Source of the DNA: Crocosphaera subtropica ATCC 51142
Lineage (GTDB): Bacteria; Cyanobacteriota; Cyanobacteriia; Cyanobacteriales; Microcystaceae
Length of the DNA: 10,244 nucleotides
Assembly (NCBI RefSeq): GCF_000017845.1
Contig: NC_010543.1
Location: 1 to 10,244 of the forward strand
Direction of reading: 5' to 3'
A program made the position numbers and the translations under genes. This document shows, piece after piece, positions 1 through 10,244 of the stretch (its first letter is position 1; every line of letters begins with the position of its first letter). The notes below the pieces were generated by a model. It ran no database searches and was not told the origin of the DNA. It saw only the letters and a program-made list of their open reading frames with translations.

Positions 1-21
1 TCAAGAATGGGGATGAGTGGG
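1..21. repeat. Right half of a ~60-bp direct repeat (copy A) split across the window ends; the intact second copy is at 2231-2291
   Basis: 1-21 tcaagaatggggatgagtggg matches 2271-2291 at 20/21 positions. The left half of copy A is 10206-10244. The segment overlaps the last six codons and the stop of the recombinase gene. Confidence 0.8.
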
Positions 22-657
22 AGATGGTGTGGAGTTATCTTGGAGGGGTTGAGGATCACGAAAGCTACTTTTCCCGATATATGACAAACTCGATAAAGAC
101 GCGATCGCGCCTTTGACTTGATCTGGTTTGACTTCCAGGTAGGCATGGAGTTGGGTGAGGTTGTGATGGCCGCTGATTTCGGCGATGACTCGGAAGGGGA
201 TGTTAGCGTCGCTCATTTGGGTCAGGGCGGTGCGTCGGAAGCTGTGGGTGCTGACTCCTTCTAGTCCGATGGAACGACAGGCTTTACGGAGGATCAGGGA
301 GGCACTGTCGGGGTGAAGGTGGCCTTTGTTCCAACGTCCAGGGAAGAGGTATTCGTTCTCTGAATTGGGTCTATATTGCCCTAGAAGGTGTCTTAAATCC
401 TCTGAGGTAGGAATTGTTCGGCTGGCTAGTTTACCCTTGCTGTTGCCCTTTCTGATGGTCATGTAGGGTCGGACGGTTCCGAGGCGATCATATGCGTCGG
501 CAGTGAGTTGAGTGACGGCTTCGTTAATTCGACAAGCGGTATAGAGGCAAAAGCCGAATAGAGTGCGATCTCGTTGGGTTTTAAGTCCTTGGTTGAAGAG
601 GAGGTAAATTTCTTCAGGGGTAAGGATTTTAGCTTTGCCGTGCCGTTCTCGTTTCAT
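1..657 (-). CDS. Tyrosine recombinase / phage-integrase family, catalytic domain only (218 aa)
   Basis: ATG at 657-655 and TGA at 3-1. Catalytic residues are readable: Arg in TACRINEA, H-x-x-R in THSFRRT, His in SGHHN, Tyr in HAYLEV. The first catalytic Arg is at residue ~43, so the usual ~100-aa N-terminal core-binding domain is absent. The gene lies 18 bp downstream of, and co-oriented with, the 676-1170 gene. Confidence 0.9.
   Translation of the reverse strand: MKRERHGKAKILTPEEIYLLFNQGLKTQRDRTLFGFCLYTACRINEAVTQLTADAYDRLGTVRPYMTIRKGNSKGKLASRTIPTSEDLRHLLGQYRPNSENEYLFPGRWNKGHLHPDSASLILRKACRSIGLEGVSTHSFRRTALTQMSDANIPFRVIAEISGHHNLTQLHAYLEVKPDQVKGAIASLSSLSYIGKSSFRDPQPLQDNSTPSPTHPHS
101..108. 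repeat. HIP1 octamer GCGATCGC (cyanobacterial highly iterated palindrome), single copy
   Basis: Exact GCGATCGC read at 101-108. It is used only as a taxonomic hint. Confidence 0.6.
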
Positions 658-675
658 GGCTGGTGTTTAAAGTAA

Positions 676-1170
676 TTATTCTGGTTGATCGGATTTAGTG
701 GCGTTTTCAACGGCTTTTAAGTGTCTTTCTTTCAAGTCTCTGCGTCTTTGGTCATCTTCTTCTCGGCGGTAGTCGTTGAGGTTTTTAACTTTGCCTTTCC
801 AGCCGTAGTAGGGATTTAATCGAAAAGCATAGGAGCGTCCAACTTTGGGACCTCTGAGAATAATCCCTTTCTCTTCAAGAACAGAAATAGCCCTAGAAAC
901 ATTAGGCTTTTTCATCTCAAGCTTTTCTGAAATTTCATTTTGAGTGACTTGAATCCAGTTTTCAAAGTCGAGACGGGATAGCAAAAGTAAAAGAACCCTA
1001 TAAGTTTCACCTTTAAGGTCTTTATCAGTGGCTAGGAGTTCTAATGCTTCTTGACTATTCATGACCCAACCCGTTGAATAAGGATTCTGCTTAACTCCAC
1101 AATAAACTACTACTCCATCTAAAACTTCGCCTGTGTCTTGATCTACCGAGGCTATATTTCTACGTTTCAT
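676..1170 (-). CDS. Winged-helix DNA-binding protein, RepL-like (replication/maintenance) or recombination regulator
   Basis: I prefer the ATG at 1170-1168 (MKRRNIAS...), which has GGAGAG 5 nt upstream, over the TTG at 1185 used by the ORF track. The pattern GWVMNSQEALELL...YRVLLLLLSRLDFENWIQVTQNEISEKLEMKKPNVSRAISVLEEKGIILR...YAFRLNPYYGWKG fits a RepL/MarR-type winged helix. The C-terminus is basic and acidic. Confidence 0.7.
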   Translation of the reverse strand: MKRRNIASVDQDTGEVLDGVVVYCGVKQNPYSTGWVMNSQEALELLATDKDLKGETYRVLLLLLSRLDFENWIQVTQNEISEKLEMKKPNVSRAISVLEEKGIILRGPKVGRSYAFRLNPYYGWKGKVKNLNDYRREEDDQRRRDLKERHLKAVENATKSDQPE

Positions 1171-1187
1171 TAGGCTCTCCAACAAAT

Positions 1188-1228
1188 AGTTATCATATAT
1201 GATAATTGAGTTATCATATATGATAACT
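1188..1228. promoter_or_regulatory. Two tandem palindromic operator sites overlapping a sigma70-like promoter for the 1170->1 operon
   Basis: AGTTATCATATATGATAACT at 1209-1228 is a perfect 20-bp palindrome. 1188-1207 agttatcatatatgataatt matches it at 18/20, with a perfect 16-bp core TTATCATATATGATAA at 1190-1205. The two centres are 21 bp apart. On the minus strand, TTGAAA (1241-1236), a 17-nt spacer and TATGAT (1218-1213) place the -10 inside the distal palindrome. Confidence 0.6.
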
Positions 1229-1465
1229 ATCCAATTTTCAAACCCTTATGTAGAGCCACTCATAAGTAGGTTCCTTTATGTCTCTTGTAATAAAAATCTA
1301 TAAGCTGTGCTTATCAATGGGGGTGTAATCCGAACTGGACAAAGCTCTTAAGAGATTTTAACTAAAATTAATAATATTTTTAGATTTACCTAGAGAATTA
1401 GTGTTTATTATTACAGCATTACATTATTAAAAAAAGAATTGTGAATTGTAAGGAGTTAATTAATT

Positions 1466-2113
1466 ATGAAAGTATCAAATTTCAAAAAGCCATTAATTTA
1501 TTTAATTTTATCCGTAACTTTAGTTAACATATTTGCTGATAAAGCTGATGCTTTTAAGTTAGAACTTAAAAGAGTCGGTGAATGGGATCAAATGATTTTT
1601 AATCCTTTCACGGGTAATAAAATTGGAACAATTACAGTACCTCACTTTAGGTTAGAAAAAATAGAAATTCAGTTAGGTCTTAATAATACAGGAAAAGTTT
1701 TTCTAGATAAAGGAGTATTAGCAAACAACTTTTTAGAAGATTTAGGTGAAGGAGTTATTCCAGTTACAATGGATGGTCAAGAAATTGCATTTGATAATAC
1801 CATGTTTCCCGATATTCCAGGATCTGGATTTACAACAGATACTAATAACGGAACTAATTTTTTAATAACTTTTGATGAGCCTTTTACGGAACCAGTAGGA
1901 TCAATTGTAGATGTTTCAGATATGAACATTTTAATATCAACTCCTTTAAATGTTTTTGATACTTCTTTAGTTGAAGGAAGTGTTTTTAACAGTGCAATGA
2001 CGGATAGTGAACCTGCTGAAATAGTTTCTACACCTGAAAAGTCTGTATCTTCTATAACTTTATTGAGCTTATTAGGAGTAGGAATGTTTTTGAAAAAGAA
2101 AGTAAATGTATAA
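1466..2113 (+). CDS. Secreted protein with a PEP-CTERM-like C-terminal sorting signal (215 aa)
   Basis: AAGGAG at 1450-1455 lies 10 nt before the ATG. The N-terminal signal peptide is LIYLILSVTLVNIFADKADA/FK. The C-terminus is TPEKSVSS + hydrophobic ITLLSLLGVGMFL + KKK. The gene is visibly more AT-rich than the integrase operon. Confidence 0.75.
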   Translation: MKVSNFKKPLIYLILSVTLVNIFADKADAFKLELKRVGEWDQMIFNPFTGNKIGTITVPHFRLEKIEIQLGLNNTGKVFLDKGVLANNFLEDLGEGVIPVTMDGQEIAFDNTMFPDIPGSGFTTDTNNGTNFLITFDEPFTEPVGSIVDVSDMNILISTPLNVFDTSLVEGSVFNSAMTDSEPAEIVSTPEKSVSSITLLSLLGVGMFLKKKVNV

Positions 2114-2150
2114 AAAGCTTGGAATGGTTGTATATCCTATATACCTGTTG

Positions 2151-2182
2151 CTCTACACTGAGTATGAATACTTAGTGTAGAG
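2151..2182 (+). terminator. Strong stem-loop between the convergent genes (possible terminator, no T-tract)
   Basis: ctctacactgagtat (2151-2165), loop ga, atacttagtgtagag (2168-2182). This is a 15-bp stem with one G:U-type position. No U-run follows, so intrinsic-terminator function is uncertain. Confidence 0.4.
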
Positions 2183-2230
2183 ACGATTTAAGCAGCCCAC
2201 CAGGGGGGCAGTTAGCGCAGGGGGTAGTGA

Positions 2231-2291
2231 AGAAATAATGCGACGATAGGAGCAACGATCTTGCTTGTCTTCAAGAATTGGGATGAGTGGG
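2231..2291. repeat. Copy B of the ~60-bp direct repeat (candidate att/recombination site)
   Basis: agaaataa (2231-2238) equals 10206-10213. tgcgacgataggagcaacgatctt (2239-2262) is identical to 10217-10240. tcaagaattgggatgagtggg (2271-2291) matches 1-21 at 20/21. The copies differ by a 3-nt and a 4-nt indel. Copy B sits in the intergenic space between the convergent PEP-CTERM genes. Confidence 0.85.
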
Positions 2292-2320
2292 GAATAATGT
2301 GCCTTGAGTATAAGTGATCA

Positions 2321-3493
2321 CTAATTATTGTGTTTATGTTTAGGAATCAAACTTATAACTAAAATTGAGAAAGTGAAAAGACTTAATAAGGAAGAAGACT
2401 CTGGAACGGTTACTGAGGTAATGCGCCAAATTTTTCCTGCTCCGGCTCGATTTGTTCCATCTGAAACAAACAAACCTCCACCAAGTATGCCTTCAGTATC
2501 AAATGCTACATCAATAGCATCTATATTTGTCAAAAACGGAATTAGAGTTCCATCAGGTTTTAGGGTAAAAAGTGTTCCATCGTCATTCCCGAAACTACTG
2601 CCTTCTGTAGCAACAAAAAGATCAGAACCAAACACTCCACCTGGGCCTAGTTCAATAAGTTCCAAACCGCTCAGACCATCAACTAAAAGAGTAGAAGTTC
2701 CATCTAAATTAACTAAAAAAAGTGCATCATTCATTGTTGCCTCTCCATCTGTTTGCAATGAAAAGGTTCCTGTAACAAACCCTCCCCCTTCTTGCCATTG
2801 TCCAAGATCATTAATAGAAGCATAAGCGGCTGGTTTATGGCGATGAATAAATGTAGTTAAAGTTGGCTCTGGAAAAATAGCTGAAGACACAGAAGCAAAA
2901 ACATTACTACTTCCATCTGAATTAATTTGAAGAATATCTCTTGAGGCTTGAGAATCTGATCCAATTGAGCCATCAGTAGCGAATATAACACCACCAGGTC
3001 CATAAGTTAATACAGGAGGACCAAAAGGTGATGATGAAATATTTGAAGCAAAAGTTGTGAGAGTCCCGTCAGAAAGCAAACGGCGAATTCTTTGATCACG
3101 CGGCTCTGAAATCAGAATACCGTCTCCGTATGAACCTCTCGCAAAAAGCATTGATTCTGCGCTATTTAACTGATCTGTAACTATAGAAATAGTTCCTGCG
3201 TGATCTATTCTCATTAAACGATTACCACCAGGTAAAAAACTGGGTCCAGGGGTTACATACAATCCTGCTGGAAAACCATTTTCTCCACTAGAAATTGTTA
3301 ATTGAAATGCGTCTAGATCTGGATCTATAGATGCCAAATCTACAAAAAGCTCAACTTTAAAACGGTCAGAATTTACTAAAGTAGGAACAGCTTTAGCATT
3401 AGGTATAGAACCCATAGTTAAACTAATAAAAACACTAATAAAACTAGGTAAAGAAGATAATATTTTTCGAGAAAAGTTATCAAATAAAAACAT
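2321..3493 (-). CDS. Secreted beta-propeller-like repeat protein with a PEP-CTERM-like C-terminus (390 aa)
   Basis: Signal peptide ...SVFISLTMGSIPNAKA/VP. Recurrent (S/L/D)DG(T/S)xxxF/L strand motifs are present (SDGTLTTFAS, SDGSSNVFAS, LDGTSTLLVD, DDGTLFTLKPDGTLIPFL). The C-terminus is VPESSS + hydrophobic LLSLFTFSILVISLI + PKHKH. Confidence 0.8.
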   Translation of the reverse strand: MFLFDNFSRKILSSLPSFISVFISLTMGSIPNAKAVPTLVNSDRFKVELFVDLASIDPDLDAFQLTISSGENGFPAGLYVTPGPSFLPGGNRLMRIDHAGTISIVTDQLNSAESMLFARGSYGDGILISEPRDQRIRRLLSDGTLTTFASNISSSPFGPPVLTYGPGGVIFATDGSIGSDSQASRDILQINSDGSSNVFASVSSAIFPEPTLTTFIHRHKPAAYASINDLGQWQEGGGFVTGTFSLQTDGEATMNDALFLVNLDGTSTLLVDGLSGLELIELGPGGVFGSDLFVATEGSSFGNDDGTLFTLKPDGTLIPFLTNIDAIDVAFDTEGILGGGLFVSDGTNRAGAGKIWRITSVTVPESSSLLSLFTFSILVISLIPKHKHNN

Positions 3494-3595
3494 ATTTTTA
3501 TTTAAAAAAATTTACTGCTACAAAATTAGTATAGTTAAAAAATAAAAAAATTAAATTAAATTAAGATTAAGTAATGATGCCTATGGTTAAGTGGT

Positions 3596-5986
3596 TTAAA
3601 GTGAAAATCCTCTACCTCGACTACGTTTCTGCTCTTGTTCTCTTTCCCATCTTAATTGAGCCATAAGAGCCTCATTCCAATCTTTATGATGGTTTGGCAC
3701 TACTCGACTAAGTTGAGCCGTAGAAGGAGCAATATTATTAAGCTCCTGAGCGATTCCCTGACCAGCTTCATCCTTATCAGTAGCGATAATAATTTGTCCC
3801 CCTTGGCTGTGGATCTTCTCAAAGGCTGTTTTAAGTAGGGTTTTCTGCTTTTCTGATAACGTGCCACCGGTGGCCATATAACGGGTGTTGGCATCAGGGA
3901 ATAGTTGATGATAGCTTAAGCAGTCTAGAGGGCTTTCACAGATGACTAATTTAGTATCAGTAGAGGCTGGTTTAGAGAACCATAGCCCTTTACTGCCACC
4001 TTTAGAGAAGCCTTTAAACTGTTGGTTACGAATTTCATAGCCACAGATACCCTCACGGTCATGGTAAGGAAAAATGACATTATTACGGCTGTCAGTGTAG
4101 ATTTTGTCTTGAAATTTAGGATTACTGGTGGTTTGTGGGTTGATGCCTCGTTGGGTAAGATAAGGATGGTTTGTAATGGGTTTAAAGCGTTCAAATTGAG
4201 TGAGTATGTTGTGTCTATCTGGGGTGCTTGGGGTTAGTTTAGGGGTAGATTTTTTAGGGGTGTAAGTAGAAGAATAGGTATCATTTAACCAGGGTCTAAG
4301 TTCTTTTCTAACTTCTCCTAAGTTGAGGTTTCTTTTATTCTGAATAAAGTCAATGATTGAGCCACTATCTCTATCATCTTTAACGGATGAGTAAAAATAG
4401 TGTCCATCGGCTTGATTAAGACCAACGAGAATCTTATCCCCTTGGTTATCTTTGAGGACAAGACAATTAACTGAACTTTTTTTCTTATCTATAGTATAAC
4501 CTTGTGTTTGAGCATAATCAGCTAGGTTAATTTGTTTGCATCGATGCAACTCTTCAGCTTGTTTATCTGCTATTTTTCTAAGACGTTCATGATGTCTTGA
4601 TAAGCGTTTTCGAGTTCGGTTATCCTGTTCGATAAGTTGTTGATGGTGCTGTTGAGTGAGTTGATTTGCTTGGTTAAGTTGGTCATTTGTTCGTTCTGTT
4701 GTTGCTTGTCCTTCTCGTATTGAATGGCAAAGTTCTTGAAGGTTTCTAGTAGCTCTTTTTCTAGTTGGTTCATCGTCTTCTTCTACAGCTTTAAGCAGGG
4801 CTTGCCTTTGCATTTCCAATTGGTCTTGTGATTGCTGTTGGGAGGTAATATTATGAATTTCCCTTGACTGGTTTGATAAAGTTCTATCCCCCAAGTCTTC
4901 TGCTTGAGTTGATTGAGGGTGATTCTGTTGGTTTGAATTTGTTGAAATTGTTTTGTTAAATATTGAGTCATCCCCCAACTGCCTATCAAGGAACCTGTTA
5001 AGAGGCTGATAAGAATTGTCCCTGGCAGTAGTGAAGTCCATTTCAGATGGTTTTTGATATTCTGTTGAGTAGCTTGAATATCGTTGGTGATGGTAGTCTC
5101 TACGTTTTGACACATTTTCTGACAGTTTTTCTTGAGCTTGTTTAATTCTTGATTGATTATCTGCTCTTGTTGCTGTCTGTCCTGTTGCCGTTTCCGTTGT
5201 AGGTTCTTGTCCAAGTCGCCAAGATGCACTATAAATTCCTCCTTTTAATCTAATGCGTTTATTTAGGTCATCATGGGTAACGGTGATGTAATCTTCCCCT
5301 TGCCTTGTAATGGTAAAGGCTGCGTCTTCTAGGGTGGTAATGATATCGTTACGGTTTTGGATCTGTCCTTCTTCTATATAAGCCGTTAAGTAATTGGTGA
5401 TGATCTTCCGAGCATCGTCCCGGCTGATGGGGGTTTGTCCAGCAAGTTCTAAGCGATGGTTTTGGGCATTAATTAAGGCTTGATGACCAGGATAATAGGT
5501 TCTAGAGCGTTCTGGGTCATCGGGGCTTGCCCATCCTTGAGAAGTGTTCCAAAGGTCACGCCAGGGTCTAAAGTAACTTTCCCATCCAGGGGGAGCAATA
5601 TTTAAGCTTTTACCAGTGGTTAATTCAACTCTAGGGGTAACAAAATGGAGTTCTACCCTATCATTGCCTGTGTGGGTATGCCTTACCCATAAAATGTCAT
5701 ACTGATCCTTATCTAATCCAGCAAAGGCGACGTTTTCAAAGGAGTTAATAAGGGCTTGTTGTTGTTCATTGTTAGGAGCATCTTCAGGAGCAAAGCTAAG
5801 AACGCCACTACGGTATTTATGTTTGAAGTTTAGGGAATCAATTAAGTTAATGGTTTGTTGAGGATCTCCTTTAATTAGTTCGGGTTGAGGGTCACGAATG
5901 ATACCTTTAGCATCAGTTTCTTTAAGGATATATTCAACTGGGGCTTTACCTTTTCCCGTCCCACGGTCAAAGAACTTAAGTAACAT
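3596..5986 (-). CDS. MOB relaxase (ColE1 MbeA-like, MobA/VirD2 relaxase domain) fused to a DUF3991 + Toprim primase-like C-terminal domain
   Basis: I prefer the ATG at 5986-5984 (MLLKFFDRGTGKGKAPVEYIL...), which has GAGGA 9 nt upstream and an 11-bp overlap with the mobC stop; the ORF-track start at 6040 runs through mobC. The N-terminus parallels MbeA as I recall it: KFxxRGxGxGxxPVxYxL with Tyr19, YRSGVLSF, and WVRHTHTGNDRVELHFVTP as the metal-binding motif. Next comes a Q/S/N-rich linker. The C-terminal part has a DUF3991-like segment (NLADYAQTQGYTID...GSIIDFIQ) and a Toprim domain (LVICESPLD ... IIIATDKDEAG at ~3761-3790). Confidence 0.9.
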   Translation of the reverse strand: MLLKFFDRGTGKGKAPVEYILKETDAKGIIRDPQPELIKGDPQQTINLIDSLNFKHKYRSGVLSFAPEDAPNNEQQQALINSFENVAFAGLDKDQYDILWVRHTHTGNDRVELHFVTPRVELTTGKSLNIAPPGWESYFRPWRDLWNTSQGWASPDDPERSRTYYPGHQALINAQNHRLELAGQTPISRDDARKIITNYLTAYIEEGQIQNRNDIITTLEDAAFTITRQGEDYITVTHDDLNKRIRLKGGIYSASWRLGQEPTTETATGQTATRADNQSRIKQAQEKLSENVSKRRDYHHQRYSSYSTEYQKPSEMDFTTARDNSYQPLNRFLDRQLGDDSIFNKTISTNSNQQNHPQSTQAEDLGDRTLSNQSREIHNITSQQQSQDQLEMQRQALLKAVEEDDEPTRKRATRNLQELCHSIREGQATTERTNDQLNQANQLTQQHHQQLIEQDNRTRKRLSRHHERLRKIADKQAEELHRCKQINLADYAQTQGYTIDKKKSSVNCLVLKDNQGDKILVGLNQADGHYFYSSVKDDRDSGSIIDFIQNKRNLNLGEVRKELRPWLNDTYSSTYTPKKSTPKLTPSTPDRHNILTQFERFKPITNHPYLTQRGINPQTTSNPKFQDKIYTDSRNNVIFPYHDREGICGYEIRNQQFKGFSKGGSKGLWFSKPASTDTKLVICESPLDCLSYHQLFPDANTRYMATGGTLSEKQKTLLKTAFEKIHSQGGQIIIATDKDEAGQGIAQELNNIAPSTAQLSRVVPNHHKDWNEALMAQLRWEREQEQKRSRGRGFSL
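4570..4773 (-). CDS. Candidate overprinted gene inside the relaxase gene: 67-aa coiled-coil protein, MbeD/MobD-like
   Basis: ATG at 4773-4771, 9 nt after the TAG of the 4783-5229 ORF and in the same frame as it. That frame differs from the relaxase frame. The heptad-like sequence is MNQLEKELLETFKNFAIQYEKDKQQQNEQMTNLTKQINSLNSTINNLSNRITELENAYQ. Confidence 0.45.
   Translation of the reverse strand: MNQLEKELLETFKNFAIQYEKDKQQQNEQMTNLTKQINSLNSTINNLSNRITELENAYQDIMNVLEK
4783..5229 (-). CDS. Candidate overprinted gene inside the relaxase gene: 148-aa membrane-anchored protein, MobB/MbeB-like accessory
   Basis: GTG start at 5229-5227, preceded by a perfect AAGGAGG (5244-5238) with an 8-nt spacer. The frame differs from the relaxase frame. 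The product has a charged, Q-rich coiled-coil N-terminus, one clear TM helix (WTSLLPGTILISLLTGSLIGSWGM) and a small C-terminal domain (WGIELYQTSQGKFIILPP...WKCKGKPCLKL). Confidence 0.55.
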   Translation of the reverse strand: MHLGDLDKNLQRKRQQDRQQQEQIINQELNKLKKNCQKMCQNVETTITNDIQATQQNIKNHLKWTSLLPGTILISLLTGSLIGSWGMTQYLTKQFQQIQTNRITLNQLKQKTWGIELYQTSQGKFIILPPNSNHKTNWKCKGKPCLKL

Positions 5987-6335
5987 CTTCGTTGTCCTCT
6001 GAATTAGGAGAAGGTTTATCAGATTTAACTGATAGTTCATGTAGGGTTTCTTGGATCAGTCTAAGAGCTTGAATAACCTCAATAGCTTCGGCGGTTTGTT
6101 TGTAGGTATTAGCCCATTTAGCGATTTGGTTTAGATTATTGCCAATGCGAGCGATCTGCCTAGTTTGTTCTTGAACTAATGAACTATTTGAAGCTGTCCA
6201 AGTTCGAGTTTTGGACATAGCTTGTCGGATAAGATTAGAGAGAGTAAGACCTGAGAGTACGGCCTTTTCTTGCCAAGCTAATTTTTCAGAAGGAGTTACC
6301 CGAATTGTTAGATTAATGTTACGTTTCTCAGTCAT
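5976..6335 (-). CDS. mobC: MobC/MbeC-family relaxosome accessory protein (ribbon-helix-helix N-terminus)
   Basis: I prefer the ATG at 6335-6333 (MTEKRNINLTIRVTPSEKLAWQEKAVLSGLTLSNLIRQA...). The longer track ORF to 6434 reads through G5/C5 repeat DNA. The RHH motif plus the IARIGNNLNQIAKWAN motif are typical of MobC. The stop overlaps the relaxase start, suggesting translational coupling. Confidence 0.85.
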   Translation of the reverse strand: MTEKRNINLTIRVTPSEKLAWQEKAVLSGLTLSNLIRQAMSKTRTWTASNSSLVQEQTRQIARIGNNLNQIAKWANTYKQTAEAIEVIQALRLIQETLHELSVKSDKPSPNSEDNEDVT

Positions 6336-6350
6336 AATAAAAAGAGAAGA

Positions 6351-6648
6351 ACATTCCTTTCCCATCTGCCCGAAGGGGGTTTTAGGGGGTTTCCCCCTAA
6401 ACAGCAGCCCCATGTTAGAATCTTTGTGATTCAACTATAACATAAGTACATGGGGTCTGCTGGCTTCCGCTTCACGGAAGGGACTACACTGAAAGGCTAT
6501 CTAGGGGTAATGGGGTTACAGTAATAAGATAATTATAAGGTATTTTCCTAATCGGAAAATAGTTATTTGTGAATGGGGGATAATCCCCCAAACCCCCTTA
6601 CTGGGGGACACCCCCAGACCCCCATTAGGGCAGATGGGAAAGGAATGT
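6351..6648. other. Candidate oriT / highly structured element bounded by perfect 21-bp inverted repeats
   Basis: acattcctttcccatctgccc (6351-6371) is the exact reverse complement of 6628-6648. Internal hairpins: tttaggggg-ttt-ccccctaaa (6381-6401), cttccg-cttca-cggaag (6464-6480), tattttcc-taatc-ggaaaata (6541-6561), ggggg-ataat-ccccc (6575-6589), ctggggg-aca-cccccag (6601-6617). The element lies immediately upstream of mobC-relaxase. Confidence 0.55.
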
Positions 6649-6772
6649 CTTTGTTTGATTAATTGGTTTAATATTGATAGTAGTTATTATGGAGGTGGGA
6701 TTATAGAAAGGCAAACATTGGGGGCTTTAGAGAGGGCTTATTTGTCACTTCAGGATATAGTGACTAATTTAT

Positions 6773-6931
6773 ATGGTGAAGCGACTGTTTGAAATAGGAA
6801 AATTAACGGTAGGACAAGCAGCAGAATTGGCGGGTTATTCTAAACCGACTTTTATCGAGTTACTTGGTAAATTAGGGGTTCCTGTGATTGATTATCCCCC
6901 CCAAGAATTAGAAGAGGAAAAAATTACTTAA
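6773..6931 (+). CDS. Small ORF (52 aa), UPF0175-family antitoxin-like; possibly N-terminally truncated
   Basis: This ORF is not in the supplied track, probably because it is short. The translation is MVKRLFEIGKLTVGQAAELAGYSKPTFIELLGKLGVPVIDYPPQELEEEKIT*. The G-x-AAELAG...F..LL...G(I/V)P....EL.EE pattern is typical of UPF0175 C-terminal halves. There is no obvious SD, an in-frame stop lies 9 nt upstream, and no PIN-type partner gene follows. Confidence 0.4.
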   Translation: MVKRLFEIGKLTVGQAAELAGYSKPTFIELLGKLGVPVIDYPPQELEEEKIT

Positions 6932-7087
6932 TTTATCTTTTTATAAAATAAGTATAACATTATAACGTGATTTTAGTTACAGTGTTATTAACTTTGTTAT
7001 ACACTTATAAATTAAATGGTTAATAATCACGATAATTAGAGTTGACTATAACTACAGTTTAGTTTTTATTTAAAACGGTGTTTTTAA

Positions 7088-7124
7088 ATGTGTCCAACAT
7101 TGTACACTATTATGTTAGACACAT
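7088..7124. repeat. 13-bp inverted repeat carrying the TGTC(C/T)AACA motif, downstream of the 7203-7490 gene
   Basis: atgtgtccaacat (7088-7100) and atgttagacacat (7112-7124) are reverse complements at 12/13, with an 11-nt spacer. They share their core with the sites at 8279-8331 and 8566-8577. Confidence 0.5.
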
Positions 7125-7202
7125 AATAGTAAAAATTGGCTATTGATGGGGAATAGTACCCCAGACAACCGTTATGTAGATGAAAAAAGGGTGGTGTTTT
7201 TT

Positions 7203-7490
7203 CTAAAAGGGGTCAATAGCATAGGTTAATAATTCCTTAGTGATTCGGTTAAAGTCTTTGATTGACTGAGCTTGATCTAATTGATTTAATAGAGCTTGTC
7301 TATCGTCTTCTTTGGGGAAGTAATGCCCTTTAAAACTTGTCCAGTGTTTGAGATACCCTCTAATTAAATCAGCATCTTCTTGGTTAAAGTTTGAGGAGTT
7401 ACTAAATAGCTTTTTGACGGCGTTAGGTAATTGACCGCTTTGTTCGTTTCTCCAATAAACTAAGGTATGGTCTGGATAGTTATAAAACAT
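7203..7490 (-). CDS. Hypothetical protein (95 aa), second gene of the RHH-GIY-YIG operon
   Basis: ATG at 7490, with AGAGG ~10 nt upstream and a 33-bp gap after the upstream gene. I recognise no motif in MFYNYPDHTLVYWRNEQSGQLPNAVKK...ELLTYAIDPF. Confidence 0.65.
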   Translation of the reverse strand: MFYNYPDHTLVYWRNEQSGQLPNAVKKLFSNSSNFNQEDADLIRGYLKHWTSFKGHYFPKEDDRQALLNQLDQAQSIKDFNRITKELLTYAIDPF

Positions 7491-7523
7491 TTTATTTTGC
7501 CTCTGATTGTGTTAGTTAATAGC

Positions 7524-8279
7524 TTAGGATTGAAAGAATTTAGACAAGCTGCTTCCTTCTTCAGTGGGTCGATATTTCCAACCGCTTAACTCTTCAAGGT
7601 ACTCAATGGGGTCAACTTCTAATAAGGAAGCTGCATCCTCTAAGTCCTTAACTGTATTGAAACCGAAATGCTTGGCTAAACCACTGCGAGTAACGCCTTC
7701 TCGTAAGTCTTCTGATGAGGGGTTCCATTCTTGTAACCCTCGTTTGGGTAAGTAGTTTTGAAGCTTCTTAACTACCTTCTCTGACCCAAGTTGAACCAAA
7801 ACTGATAAGGTATCATTGAACTGCTTTTTAAGGGTGGTCAATTCCTGTTCTAGTTTCTCAAATTGGTCAGAGGTTACTAATGCTTTGGTTTGAATTGTCT
7901 CAGTGGGTTCTGATTGGAACTCTTCTATAGTTTGGTTTAGGTTATCAACAGAGTCAAAAGTAAAGTAACCTATACGGGAATCCATAGAGGACTCTATAAA
8001 GTATTGATACTTGTGATGACTATTCCAACGAGTTCTTAAGTTATCTGCTTTGCCAATGTAGAGAAGTTGATGGTCTAAAGTATAAACAAAATAGATTCCA
8101 GGTTGAGAGGGTAATTTTACCCGTTCAGTGATATGAACCGAGGGTATAGAACTTAGTAACATCCCGATAATTACATCGGTCTTATTTTGTCGAGTCTGTT
8201 CTACTTGTTCATCAATACCCTTCATTAACTCAGAGGGACATCTGATAGTAAAGCTTGATGTGGATTGAGTTTTAGCCAT
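7524..8279 (-). CDS. Ribbon-helix-helix + GIY-YIG nuclease-domain protein with an unknown C-terminal domain
   Basis: I prefer the ATG at 8279-8277 (MAKTQSTSS...); the ORF track starts at the TTG at 8288. RHH-like N-terminus: FTIRCPSELMKGIDEQVEQTRQNKTDVIIGMLLSS. GIY-YIG motif: PGIYFVYTLDHQLLYIGKADNLRTRWNSHH. This is followed by a coiled-coil stretch and a ~90-aa C-terminal region. Confidence 0.8.
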   Translation of the reverse strand: MAKTQSTSSFTIRCPSELMKGIDEQVEQTRQNKTDVIIGMLLSSIPSVHITERVKLPSQPGIYFVYTLDHQLLYIGKADNLRTRWNSHHKYQYFIESSMDSRIGYFTFDSVDNLNQTIEEFQSEPTETIQTKALVTSDQFEKLEQELTTLKKQFNDTLSVLVQLGSEKVVKKLQNYLPKRGLQEWNPSSEDLREGVTRSGLAKHFGFNTVKDLEDAASLLEVDPIEYLEELSGWKYRPTEEGSSLSKFFQS

Positions 8280-8331
8280 GTTAGACAACGTTAATTATTT
8301 TAACTTGTATTGTAATCTAATTTGTCTAACA
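8279..8331. promoter_or_regulatory. Inverted TTGTCTAACA sites bracketing the promoter/start region of the RHH-GIY-YIG gene (candidate RHH operator)
   Basis: tgttagacaa (8279-8288, overlapping the start codon) is the exact reverse complement of ttgtctaaca (8322-8331), with a 33-bp spacer. The spacer contains TACAAT and TAAAAT -10-like hexamers on the minus strand. Confidence 0.5.
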
Positions 8332-8565
8332 AATGTAAGTGAAATAACCTAATTATACTTAACTGATACAAATAGTAAAATTAACTAACTACTTATAGTT
8401 ACGCTGCACATATAAACGTATAACACTGTTAAACAATATGTATATTATACTGTTTAATTTAGGAGTATTTAAAAATATAAGTAAGCACGAGTAAACTGTC
8501 TTTACTTAATAAAGTAAATTACATAAGACAGTGTTGTGTTGTTAAATATATAGTGTAGTTGATTA

Positions 8566-8577
8566 TGTCTAACAAAT
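8566..8577. repeat. Additional direct copy of the TGTCTAACAAAT 12-mer
   Basis: tgtctaacaaat at 8566-8577 is identical to 8323-8334. Confidence 0.5.
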
Positions 8578-8884
8578 ATAGTTATTTATTCAGAAAGCTG
8601 GTTAAACTTGAGAGTTAATATAAGAGTTTAGCTAATTCACTTAATAAATTAATTAGAGTATTATCTTAATAAGAATGCACTGTATAATAAATAAAATTAT
8701 AAATACTTTCAGCTTAGACTGTAACTGTATGTTAAGTAGTTAATTTGTTATTGTTATTATTTGTATTTTTCTGATAGAGTAAAAATAATGATCCTCTATG
8801 AAAAGCATTAATATCTTTTCTAAACTACTTAAATGTTTAGATTTTAGGTTCATAAATTAAAATTTGATATTAAATCTTCACAAA

Positions 8885-9370
8885 ATGTTAAATCGTTTAA
8901 ATTGGCCTGAAATTGTTGGTGGAATTATTGGAAGTATTTTAACAGTTTTTGGTTTATATCTATTTGATAAAATTGGTTTAATTAGTTCAGAAATTGTTAT
9001 TCCATCAAAGGCAATAATTCCTTTTAATTCAAATGAATGTCCTAGTGGTTGGTCAGATTATAGTCAAAGTGCTGGTCGTTTTATTATCGGTGTTGGTCAA
9101 GGAAGTAATCTTACAGAGAGAAGATTGGGAGATTTAGGTGGAACAGAAAAACATATGTTAACTGTTGATGAGATACCACAACATTATCATAACTACGAAG
9201 ATTATCATTATTATGATCAAGAGATAGGTGATCCAAATTATCAAACTCCTCAGGGTGATGAAACTGGTATATTAAAATATAGAGAAGGACAAACTACCGA
9301 AATTGGCGGGGGAAAACCTCATGAGAATATACCACCTTTTGTTGCCTTAAAATATTGTGAAAAAGAATAA
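8885..9370 (+). CDS. Membrane-anchored phage-tail-collar-domain (MdpB/COG4675-like) protein
   Basis: I prefer the ATG at 8885; the ORF track starts at the TTG at 8864. N-terminal TM helix: WPEIVGGIIGSILTVFGLYLF. Tail-collar-like core: AIIPFNSNECPSGW...GRFIIGVGQGSNLTERRLGDLGGTEKHMLTVDEIPQHYH...GGGKPHENIPPFVALKYC. Confidence 0.7.
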   Translation: MLNRLNWPEIVGGIIGSILTVFGLYLFDKIGLISSEIVIPSKAIIPFNSNECPSGWSDYSQSAGRFIIGVGQGSNLTERRLGDLGGTEKHMLTVDEIPQHYHNYEDYHYYDQEIGDPNYQTPQGDETGILKYREGQTTEIGGGKPHENIPPFVALKYCEKE

Positions 9371-9425
9371 TAATAAAAATAATATTTATCACGCTAAACT
9401 GTAATCCCTAGAAGGGACATTTGAT

Positions 9426-9944
9426 TTAGGTTTCTGGCTCTGTTTCTTTACCTTTAAGCATTACCATTAGACGGCGTTTAACATCGCCGTTGTCTTCTTT
9501 GCGGGCTAAAGTCTTAGTAGTAAAAGCTGCATATTTCTTGCTAGTATTCCAGCTTTTCCAAACTTCATCTGGATCTAAACAGTAAGCATAAACTGTTCCT
9601 GCTCCTAACTTAATTCGTAAGACAATATTGTTTTCATCAAGCCATTTGGTTCCTCTTTGAACTGAGCGAATACTAATATCTAATTCATCAGCTAGTAGTT
9701 GTTGAGAAGCAACAACAGCACCCGTACCAGGTTCAATGTGTTTGGCTAAAAACATATAGATTCTGGCAGCTAATGGATATTCTCCAAGAATACCTATAAC
9801 TCTATCAAAGCCTTTTGGATACATTTGAACAAAGTTTTTGTTTTTTTTTCTATCTTTATTTTTCTGTTCTTCGTTTAACCGTTCATCGACTAATTGTATG
9901 AAACGTTGTAAACGATCTTCTGTTGTTGCAGCGGTCTTATCCAT
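9426..9944 (-). CDS. Second RepL-like winged-helix protein (candidate plasmid replication/maintenance protein)
   Basis: ATG at 9944-9942. The sequence NFVQMYPKGFDRVIGILGEYPLAARIYMFLAKHIEPGTGAVVASQQLLADELDISIRSVQRGTKWLDENNIVLRIKLGAGTVYAYCLDPDEVWK has the same architecture as the 676-1170 product. Confidence 0.7.
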   Translation of the reverse strand: MDKTAATTEDRLQRFIQLVDERLNEEQKNKDRKKNKNFVQMYPKGFDRVIGILGEYPLAARIYMFLAKHIEPGTGAVVASQQLLADELDISIRSVQRGTKWLDENNIVLRIKLGAGTVYAYCLDPDEVWKSWNTSKKYAAFTTKTLARKEDNGDVKRRLMVMLKGKETEPET

Positions 9945-9986
9945 CTTAGAAATTCATTTGTCCGGTGTACCTGCCATTTCAGTCAA

Positions 9987-10017
9987 ATTATACGACGGAT
10001 GTGTCGTAATTTACGAC
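9987..10017 (-). promoter_or_regulatory. Putative promoter with TACGAC/GTCGTA operator repeats for the 9426-9944 gene
   Basis: Perfect TATAAT on the minus strand (9992-9987). It is embedded in tacgac (9991-9996), gtcgta (10003-10008) and tacgac (10012-10017), which form two overlapping palindromic sites. No convincing -35 was found. Confidence 0.4.
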
Positions 10018-10036
10018 AAATTTTTTCACCATTTAT

Positions 10037-10070
10037 CTAAGTATTTTTACTTACACTAAGTATTTTTACT
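10037..10070. repeat. Two direct 15-bp repeats CTAAGTATTTTTACT (iteron-like)
   Basis: 10037-10051 and 10056-10070 are identical, with a 19-bp period. They lie upstream of the putative promoter of the second RepL-like gene. Confidence 0.6.
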
Positions 10071-10073
10071 CAT

Positions 10074-10111
10074 GACACGCTAATGGCAGGTAGACACGCC
10101 ATTAGCGTGTC
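10074..10111. repeat. Perfect 14-bp-stem palindrome/hairpin
   Basis: gacacgctaatggc (10074-10087) and gccattagcgtgtc (10098-10111) are exact reverse complements, with the 10-nt loop aggtagacac. Confidence 0.65.
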
Positions 10112-10205
10112 AGGGGGTCAAGGGCTGAAACCTGCATGAAATAAGGATCTTTTATTTTTTCCTTCTTATCTCAGTTAATGAAGGGGTCTGGGGAACACTT
10201 TTCCC

Positions 10206-10244
10206 AGAAATAAAACTGCGACGATAGGAGCAACGATCTTCCTT
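10206..10244. repeat. Left half of direct repeat copy A (continues at 1-21 if the molecule is circular)
   Basis: agaaataa + aac + tgcgacgataggagcaacgatctt + cctt. The 24-mer at 10217-10240 is identical to 2239-2262. Confidence 0.85.

Follow-up and report, generated by a model that had tools for sequence, protein, structure and literature searches.

Putative mbeB- and mbeD-like genes overprinted on a relaxase-primase gene of a Crocosphaera subtropica plasmid

Analysis of a 10,244-nucleotide (nt) stretch of DNA from the cyanobacterium Crocosphaera subtropica ATCC 51142 (contig NC_010543.1, positions 1 to 10,244; hereafter the window) revealed a relaxase-primase gene on the minus strand that hosts two additional open reading frames (ORFs) in its +1 frame, designated ORF1 and ORF2 (Table 1). 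Our evaluation makes it highly probable that both are real genes, i.e., divergent orthologues of mbeB and mbeD of ColE1-type plasmids, being overprinted on the relaxase gene. For ColE1 plasmids, an overlap of mbeB and mbeD with mbeA is described (PMC6118388). A first-pass annotation, made from the letters of the window without database searches, had drawn attention to two same-strand ORFs in a shifted frame inside the relaxase gene, separated by only 9 nt, and the ORF list and the sequence agree on this point. It had also seen a likeness to ColE1 mbeB/mbeD, which is borne out by significant profile matches as well as by the same frame and order of the genes.

Results

Conservation of the alternative frame

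The locus was compared with homologous loci from a plasmid collection (Rippkaea orientalis pP880103, L001; Chondrocystis NIES-4102 plasmid6, L003) and from GTDB genomes (L004-L012; Crocosphaera chwakensis, "unicellular cyanobacterium SU3", Xenococcus, and Crocosphaera sp. Alani8). Both peptides are present in the +1 frame of every locus covering the region, with conserved starts and stops and a frame free of stop codons. Open +1 frames with conserved peptides were found in L001, L003-L007, and L009-L012 (28-100% identity), and this conservation persists at identities as low as 65% (nucleotides) and 41% (relaxase). Within the 444-nt mbeB overlap of five divergent loci, the +1 frame contains zero stops compared with 7-13 in the third frame. 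It is this comparative evidence that makes a decisive case for both predicted genes. Conservation of the alternative frame and suppressed synonymous variation in the relaxase frame had been proposed by the first-pass annotation as checks of its claim, and both came out in its favor, the former with zero stops in all homologous loci and the latter as detailed below.

Divergence by codon position is a second line of evidence. Outside the overlaps, relaxase positions 1/2/3 diverge in the normal pattern (~0.25-0.29/0.16-0.21/0.47-0.54). Counted in relaxase order, the values within the overlaps are 0.435/0.338/0.305 (mbeB) and 0.362/0.283/0.224 (mbeD), with relaxase position 3 being the least variable. 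Read in the alternative frame, the same segments display a classic coding pattern of 0.34/0.24/0.44 (mbeB) and 0.25/0.17/0.29 (mbeD); thus, the third-position excess is transferred to the alternative frame. Synonymous differences, counted at codons with an unchanged relaxase amino acid, amount to 0.215 in the mbeB and 0.137 in the mbeD overlap versus 0.39-0.49 outside.

The ORFs lie over relaxase residues 253-472 (numbered from MLLKFF, as in the first-pass annotation), between the relaxase and the primase domain. This segment was described early on as a Q/S/N-rich linker and is indeed composed of 40% Q+S+N+T compared with 23% and 28% on either side of it. Across the 444 gap-free nt of the mbeB overlap, the homologous loci match 0.52-0.96 of the amino acids of the window when read in the mbeB frame, and 0.41-0.94 when read in the relaxase frame. 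It is always higher in the mbeB frame, while the relaxase frame performs no better than the third frame, the strongest contrast being observed for mbeB codons 91-148 (0.73-0.77 identity versus 0.47-0.53 when read as relaxase). Nevertheless, the relaxase frame is open across the mbeB overlap in all six full-length loci and keeps motifs of its own therein (SASWRLG, KRRDYHxQRY, and RQLGDDSIFN). Being open with few own motifs, it is therefore probably translated through and mostly a passenger in this part. The earlier suggestion that overprinting explains the odd composition of the linker fits these data, as relaxase-frame identity in the mbeB overlap does not exceed that of the stop-laden third frame.

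Could both ORFs be open by chance, the Q/S/N/T-rich low-complexity linker simply holding few +1 stops and no protein being made? The linker is compositionally biased, and in synonymous-codon shuffles of the relaxase (n = 5000) the longest open run averaged 79 codons and occasionally reached up to 214. For at most two +1-frame stops in the region P was 0.009, and for an open +1 run of at least 154 codons 0.010. From the window alone, chance is thus excluded only moderately (P ~0.01). The homologous loci are, however, not near-identical copies (nucleotide identity down to the above-mentioned 65%), and still the five divergent ones lack any +1 stop over the mbeB overlap. Start and stop positions are conserved, and the codon-position signature is that of the alternative frame; furthermore, there is significant homology to annotated MbeB and MbeD families. 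We regard the chance explanation as extremely unlikely and as effectively refuted by the stop-free conserved frame, the codon-position signature, and the suppressed synonymous change.

ORF1 as an MbeB homologue

Based on pairwise as well as profile comparisons, ORF1 is an MbeB homologue. A tblastn search with ORF1 against 72,556 plasmids retrieved 1112 records, almost all of them small mobilizable enterobacterial plasmids, and 25 of the 40 matches listed are genes annotated as "MbeB family mobilization protein". BLASTP against an E. coli MbeB gave an E value of 2e-14, the match covering the hydrophobic helix and the C-terminal domain. Aligning 12 cyanobacterial sequences with 19 enteric MbeB proteins by hhalign resulted in a probability of 98.3% (E 1.8e-14, 140 columns). 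When 1.84 billion representative proteins were searched with a profile of cyanobacterial sequences alone, 266 clusters were collected (E<=0.001), most of the 150 listed ones being 150-190 amino acids long; an 81-sequence sample of these clusters aligned with enteric MbeB end to end (hhalign 99.8%, E 2.3e-30).

The features shared with MbeB of the ColE1/ColK/ColA type comprise the +1 frame in the relaxase gene with a start within RLKGxxY, a layout of helical N-terminus, (S/G)WG-bearing hydrophobic helix, and C-terminal motif, and the C-terminal motif itself, TL..L..KTWG[VI]......G.F[IL][IV]LP....W. In contrast to these proteins, ORF1 is encoded in a cyanobacterial host, shares only 15-23% identity with the aligned enteric MbeB sequences, and is shorter (148 versus 165-186 amino acids of the full-length enteric MbeB aligned), with a shorter stretch before the hydrophobic helix. 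Its N-terminus, MHLGDL..., fails to match Pfam MbeB_N, and its cysteine pair (C140/C145) is absent from enteric MbeB and present in Methylomarinovum.

In the AlphaFold model of ORF1, a helix spanning residues 3-67 is followed by another one (73-111), which contains the hydrophobic segment, and by a four-strand beta domain (116-147). According to this predicted layout the hydrophobic helix carries a GSWGM motif, and the C-terminal beta domain the motif TWGIELYQ..GKFIILPP..W.C.G.PCLKL. The two conserved cysteines in this last domain are common to the cyanobacterial and Methylomarinovum proteins. A fold search of the PDB with the model gave no match at E below 1, and the structure therefore offers no functional lead; a PDB sequence search with the ORF1 profile returned coiled-coil noise only. 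As a side observation, ORF1 residues 23-125 show a sub-threshold match to Pfam DUF6753 (20.2 bits versus 27), which recurs in three of the 12 cyanobacterial homologues, and a distant link between DUF6753 and MbeB is possible.

ORF2 as a distant MbeD homologue

ORF2 is, on the basis of profile comparisons, a distant member of the MbeD homologues. Its best Pfam match is MbeD_MobD (PF04899) with 22.5 bits versus a gathering score of 21.6, a narrow margin on a coiled-coil background. PF04899 is the only family matched by all ten of the ten cyanobacterial ORF2 homologues, with a best E value of 4.8e-7. The alignment of the ORF2 homologues with 20 enteric MbeD proteins (hhalign 91%, E 1.1e-6) extends over 69 columns from residue 1 and pairs MNQLEKELLETF..Y with MTELEMHLLNAL..Y. 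For the Chondrocystis ORF2, the top NCBIfam match is MbeD (2.5e-6), aligning residues 1-65 to profile positions 1-68.

ORF2 has the N-terminal motif M-x-x-LE-K-E-LL...Y-E, followed by a heptad coiled coil with hydrophobic residues at positions 30, 33, 37, 40, 44, 47, 51, 54, 58, 61, and 65. This unbroken 3-4 spacing agrees with the 67-residue heptad coiled coil of the first-pass annotation. The motif M-x-x-LE-x-x-LL with a subsequent coiled coil is common to ORF2 and ColE1-type MbeD, and in both cases the gene directly follows mbeB in the same frame after a spacer of 0-9 nt. The mbeD-like proteins measure 67-93 amino acids across the cyanobacterial loci compared with 77 in E. coli MbeD, and in this comparison the coiled-coil middle varies in length among the cyanobacterial copies. 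Identity between ORF2 and ColE1-type MbeD in the profile-profile alignment is 17%, and the score stays below the NCBIfam equivalog cutoff.

A number of observations weigh against assigning the two ORFs to mbeB and mbeD. With respect to ORF1, Pfam MbeB_N (PF04837) gave no match in the window sequence; the hydrophobic segment TSLLPGTILISLLTGSLIG (residues 65-83) is only moderately hydrophobic (Kyte-Doolittle 19-mer mean 1.53); and the AlphaFold model is of limited quality (mean predicted local distance difference test score (pLDDT) 70.6, predicted template modeling score (pTM) 0.27). In respect to ORF2, 53 Pfam families, nearly all of them coiled coils, match at E<1; pairwise BLASTP against E. 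coli MbeD found nothing, for which reason profiles were needed to establish the link; and the NCBIfam MbeD model (NF033829) scores 13 bits, short of its equivalog cutoff of 60, compared with 27.7 bits for the Chondrocystis homologue and 121 bits for E. coli MbeD. On a more general level, for this plasmid the case is built on sequence and comparison, and the genes are predicted.

The coiled-coil matches, the empty BLASTP result, the low NCBIfam score, and the 17% identity would also be expected if ORF1 were a true MbeB homologue and ORF2 a mere positional analogue, i.e., an unrelated coiled-coil peptide occupying the mbeD slot and matching Pfam by composition. We judge this to be unlikely. A compositional match has to be set against PF04899 being the sole family found in all ten homologues, against an alignment that starts at residue 1 and includes the M-T/N-x-LE-x-x-LL...Y motif, which is not heptad-like, and against MbeD as the top NCBIfam match of the Chondrocystis protein. 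In addition, mbeD of E. coli and Zooshikella has the same frame, the same place in the gene order, and the same spacing behind mbeB.

The missing MbeB_N match of ORF1 has to be seen in the context of the family. MbeB_N is matched by one of the 12 cyanobacterial homologues (E 0.0067) and carried by one of the 81 members of the wider family sample; therefore, the MbeB family appears much wider than the current model, which seems to cover only the enteric subgroup. NCBIfam returned no match for ORF1 either, a result that is uninformative because E. coli MbeB itself matches none of its models (there is no MbeB model). In the profile check recommended by the first-pass annotation, PF04899 recognizes ORF2, and ORF1 is tied to MbeB by tblastn, BLASTP, and hhalign rather than by MbeB_N. 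Of the coiled-coil N-terminus and strong transmembrane helix it had assigned to ORF1, a long N-terminal helix is seen in the AlphaFold model, and "strong" overstates a segment of moderate hydrophobicity.

Translation signals and gene starts

Reading the minus strand directly, the start of ORF1 is preceded by AAAAGGAGG-AATTTATA-GTG, i.e., AAGGAGG at a spacing of 8 nt, as noted at first sight for this GTG-initiated ORF of 148 codons. In the relaxase frame, this AAGGAGG falls on the codons for K-G-G in the conserved motif RLKGGIY. Predicted peptides of the +1 frame include TWGIELYQTSQGK and ELLETFK. The short spacer between both ORFs probably permits coupled translation.

Instead of using their own starts, the small ORFs might be reached by programmed ribosomal frameshifting from the relaxase frame, resulting in a fusion of the relaxase N-domain to MbeB. 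Two database proteins (P0235 and P0283) are indeed chimeras of this kind. In six of the seven loci with a full-length ORF1, however, a +1 stop lies 5-6 codons upstream of the start, with the qualification that the +1 frame of Xenococcus (L007) is open for 18 codons upstream. The GTG/ATG start and a purine-rich K-G stretch resembling a Shine-Dalgarno sequence are conserved in all lineages, the latter as full AGGAGG in the closest relatives of the window and in weaker form elsewhere; moreover, ColE1 mbeB is annotated as a separate gene. P0235 shifts frame twice, which is typical of assembly errors, and both entries of the representative protein library look like assembly frameshifts rather than natural fusions. 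Frameshifting is therefore highly improbable, and we rejected it on account of the upstream +1 stops and the conserved start and Shine-Dalgarno-like stretch. Independent initiation of an mbeB-like gene remains the preferred reading.

Architecture in other lineages

The window shares the +1 offset and a start within RLKGxxY with four other cyanobacterial loci as well as with Zooshikella, Methylomarinovum, and E. coli. Purine-rich K-G(-G) codons upstream of the mbeB start were found in E. coli, Zooshikella, Methylomarinovum, and all cyanobacterial loci. The order mbeB-then-mbeD in the same frame is identical in E. coli (L002, L015) and Zooshikella (L013), and the spacer between the two genes measures 0-9 nt in the other lineages with the exception of Rippkaea (282 nt). 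There, a 45-bp tandem repeat (L001 3471-3677; 4.6 copies, 81% matches) lengthens the relaxase linker and makes up most of this spacer, with neither small gene being disrupted.

The Methylomarinovum tepidoasis plasmid IN45P holds an unannotated mbeB-like ORF (L016 2728-3219; 163 amino acids, with the Cys pair) in the +1 frame of a "hypothetical protein", which is the relaxase; the plasmid is typed as non-mobilizable in PLSDB. The mbeB-like ORF of this locus is not followed by an mbeD-like ORF of 60 or more amino acids. The shared architecture suggests that the overprint was inherited from a common ancestor rather than having arisen by convergence.

In RSF1010/R1162, the small accessory gene mobB is overprinted in another frame between the relaxase and primase domains of a fusion gene, and the RSF1010 relaxase is of the MOBQ type, not MbeA-like. 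The likeness of the window to RSF1010 mobA/mobB, which had also been pointed out for the two ORFs, would by analogy be one of layout only, namely a relaxase-primase fusion with an overprinted gene. Among the ORF1 tblastn matches listed, which come from a plasmid collection that does not include RSF1010 itself, no RSF1010-type plasmid was found.

Host relaxase gene and operon

The host ORF (3596..6040, minus strand) encodes 814 amino acids from its first ATG (6040) and 796 from MLLKFF (ATG at 5986). MLLKFF is the start in all relaxase homologues despite the earlier ATG, and places the relaxase start in an 11-nt overlap with the end of the mobC-like gene (stop codon 5976-5978). The Pfam domains of the host ORF are a MobA/VirD2-type relaxase, DUF3991, and Toprim, and its best NCBIfam match is relax_MbeA_E1 (1e-47; 163 bits versus a cutoff of 500). 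The order of mobC before the relaxase is likewise annotated in Rippkaea, E. coli, and Methylomarinovum, and can be read from the ORF list of Zooshikella. MbeA (MOB_HEN) is encoded in the same arrangement as the window relaxase, mobC-relaxase(mbeB, mbeD), while the window relaxase, unlike MbeA, has a C-terminal DUF3991-Toprim primase domain.

A further difference concerns motif III, which in the window relaxase (residues ~110-122, window ~5620-5660) reads HTHTGNDRVELH, i.e., H...E.H, spaced as H-x8-E-x-H compared with H-x6-E-x-N in E. coli MbeA. In the alignment, E. coli and Zooshikella share HQDKGRLELN (H...E.N), Methylomarinovum has H...H.H, and the cyanobacterial clade H...E.H. The H-E-N triad variant that defines MOB_HEN (MbeA-type) relaxases is thus not what the alignment shows for the window relaxase. 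Judged from these sequences, the variants look like a graded series from the canonical histidine triad to the ColE1 "HEN" variant.

Table 1. Coordinates of the predicted genes and signals within the window
Feature	Position	Strand	Description
mbeB-like gene, ORF1	4783..5229	-	148 amino acids, GTG start, TAG stop (4783-4785), +1 frame relative to the relaxase
mbeD-like gene, ORF2	4570..4773	-	67 amino acids, ATG start, same +1 frame as ORF1
mbeB ribosome-binding site	5230..5246	-	AAGGAGG (5238-5244) and 8-nt spacer, from sequence
mbeB-mbeD spacer	4774..4782	-	9 nt, AAGAAGACG, between TAG stop and ATG
Host relaxase-primase gene	3596..5986	-	MbeA-like relaxase with DUF3991-Toprim primase domain; Pfam and NCBIfam matches, alignment
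mobC-like relaxosome accessory gene (NikA-like/MobC family)	5976..6434	-	NikA-like 7.6e-16, MobC 1.8e-13

Upstream of the mobC-like gene, short inverted repeats were noticed. A promoter and terminator scan gave no usable signal.

Other genes of the window

Elsewhere in the window, two paralogous winged-helix RepL-like proteins of 169 and 172 amino acids (676-1185 and 9426-9944, both minus strand) are candidate replication initiators, and a partial tyrosine recombinase is encoded at 1-657 (minus). Two proteins without a Pfam match (E<=0.01), encoded at 1466-2113 (plus) and 2321-3493 (minus), each have an N-terminal hydrophobic segment; by eye, their C-terminal tails (..TPEKS..hydrophobic..KKK and ..VPESSS..hydrophobic..KHKH, respectively) resemble a PEP-CTERM sorting signal. 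The remaining ORFs comprise a UPF0175 antitoxin-like one (6773-6931, plus), a ribbon-helix-helix plus GIY-YIG protein (7524-8288, minus), and one with a weak match to phage baseplate Gp10_C (8864-9370, plus; 24.3 bits, below the cutoff of 27).

Discussion

In the literature on ColE1-type plasmids, MbeB is counted among the relaxosome components and MbeD is regarded as putatively mediating entry exclusion (PMC5935869), and entry exclusion has been ascribed to mbeD elsewhere as well (PMC2831885). Transferred to the window, the mRNA of the mobC-relaxase operon would be translated in two frames. Ribosomes would initiate independently at the internal AAGGAGG/GTG within the RLKGGIY codons to produce the 148-residue MbeB-like protein, and would restart 9 nt past its stop to produce the 67-residue MbeD-like coiled coil. 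The former may be a single-pass membrane protein consisting of an N-terminal helical part, the hydrophobic helix, and a C-terminal beta domain with the Cys pair. By reference to ColE1 genetics it could serve as a membrane-anchored mobilization accessory factor, which would help to pass the relaxase-DNA complex, once assembled with MobC at the origin of transfer (oriT), on to a helper conjugative element, namely to its coupling protein and type IV secretion system. The MbeD-like protein could, on the same basis, be a small auxiliary or exclusion factor. The relaxase-frame sequence in the mbeB overlap would largely be a by-product of selection on the other frame, the relaxase frame being kept open to tether the primase domain.

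These functional proposals meet two objections. The docking role is one we infer, since even for ColE1 it is not well established what MbeB does biochemically, and the reality of exclusion by MbeD, an activity known only for ColE1, has been questioned (PMC11493245).

With regard to annotation, the relaxase is the only gene entered at the locus for Rippkaea pP880103 (RefSeq) and for the Chondrocystis plasmid, in line with the early expectation that automated annotation usually overlooks genes of this kind. The exact ORF1 product has no database record, and the cyanobacterial type of ORF1 forms only five 90%-identity clusters among 5.8 billion. The cluster members looked up stem from contigs of ~1 kb, mostly Tara metagenome scaffolds; on such short contigs gene callers pick the inner genes because the relaxase ORF is truncated. 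No paper among those covered by our literature search mentions MbeB together with cyanobacteria.

In a broader picture, which we favor by a little over even chances, the mbeB(/mbeD) overprint would be ancient and fixed across a broad clade of MbeA-like relaxases in Cyanobacteria and Proteobacteria, with the start and ribosome-binding site locked in RLKGxxY, rather than being a peculiarity of enterobacterial ColE1 plasmids. MbeB would then belong to a large family, barely covered by Pfam and NCBIfam, of no fewer than 266 clusters (50% identity), and the relaxase linker would have little sequence function of its own apart from remaining open, the cyanobacterial branch adding the primase fusion, the H-E-H variant, and possibly a disulfide-bonded extracytoplasmic tip of MbeB.

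The arrangement as such is the known one of ColE1 in a new host group, the cyanobacterial plasmids, and is not very surprising to a plasmid specialist. Our analysis adds two unannotated genes, as predicted here, to a family of small cyanobacterial plasmids and takes the mbeB/mbeD overprint known from ColE1 into another phylum and onto a relaxase-primase fusion. It also indicates that existing hidden Markov models miss most of the MbeB family. In practical terms, edits of the "linker" in vectors derived from these plasmids or from the relaxase would disrupt two hidden genes. Finally, the locus provides a clean natural example for studying the constraint shared by two reading frames.

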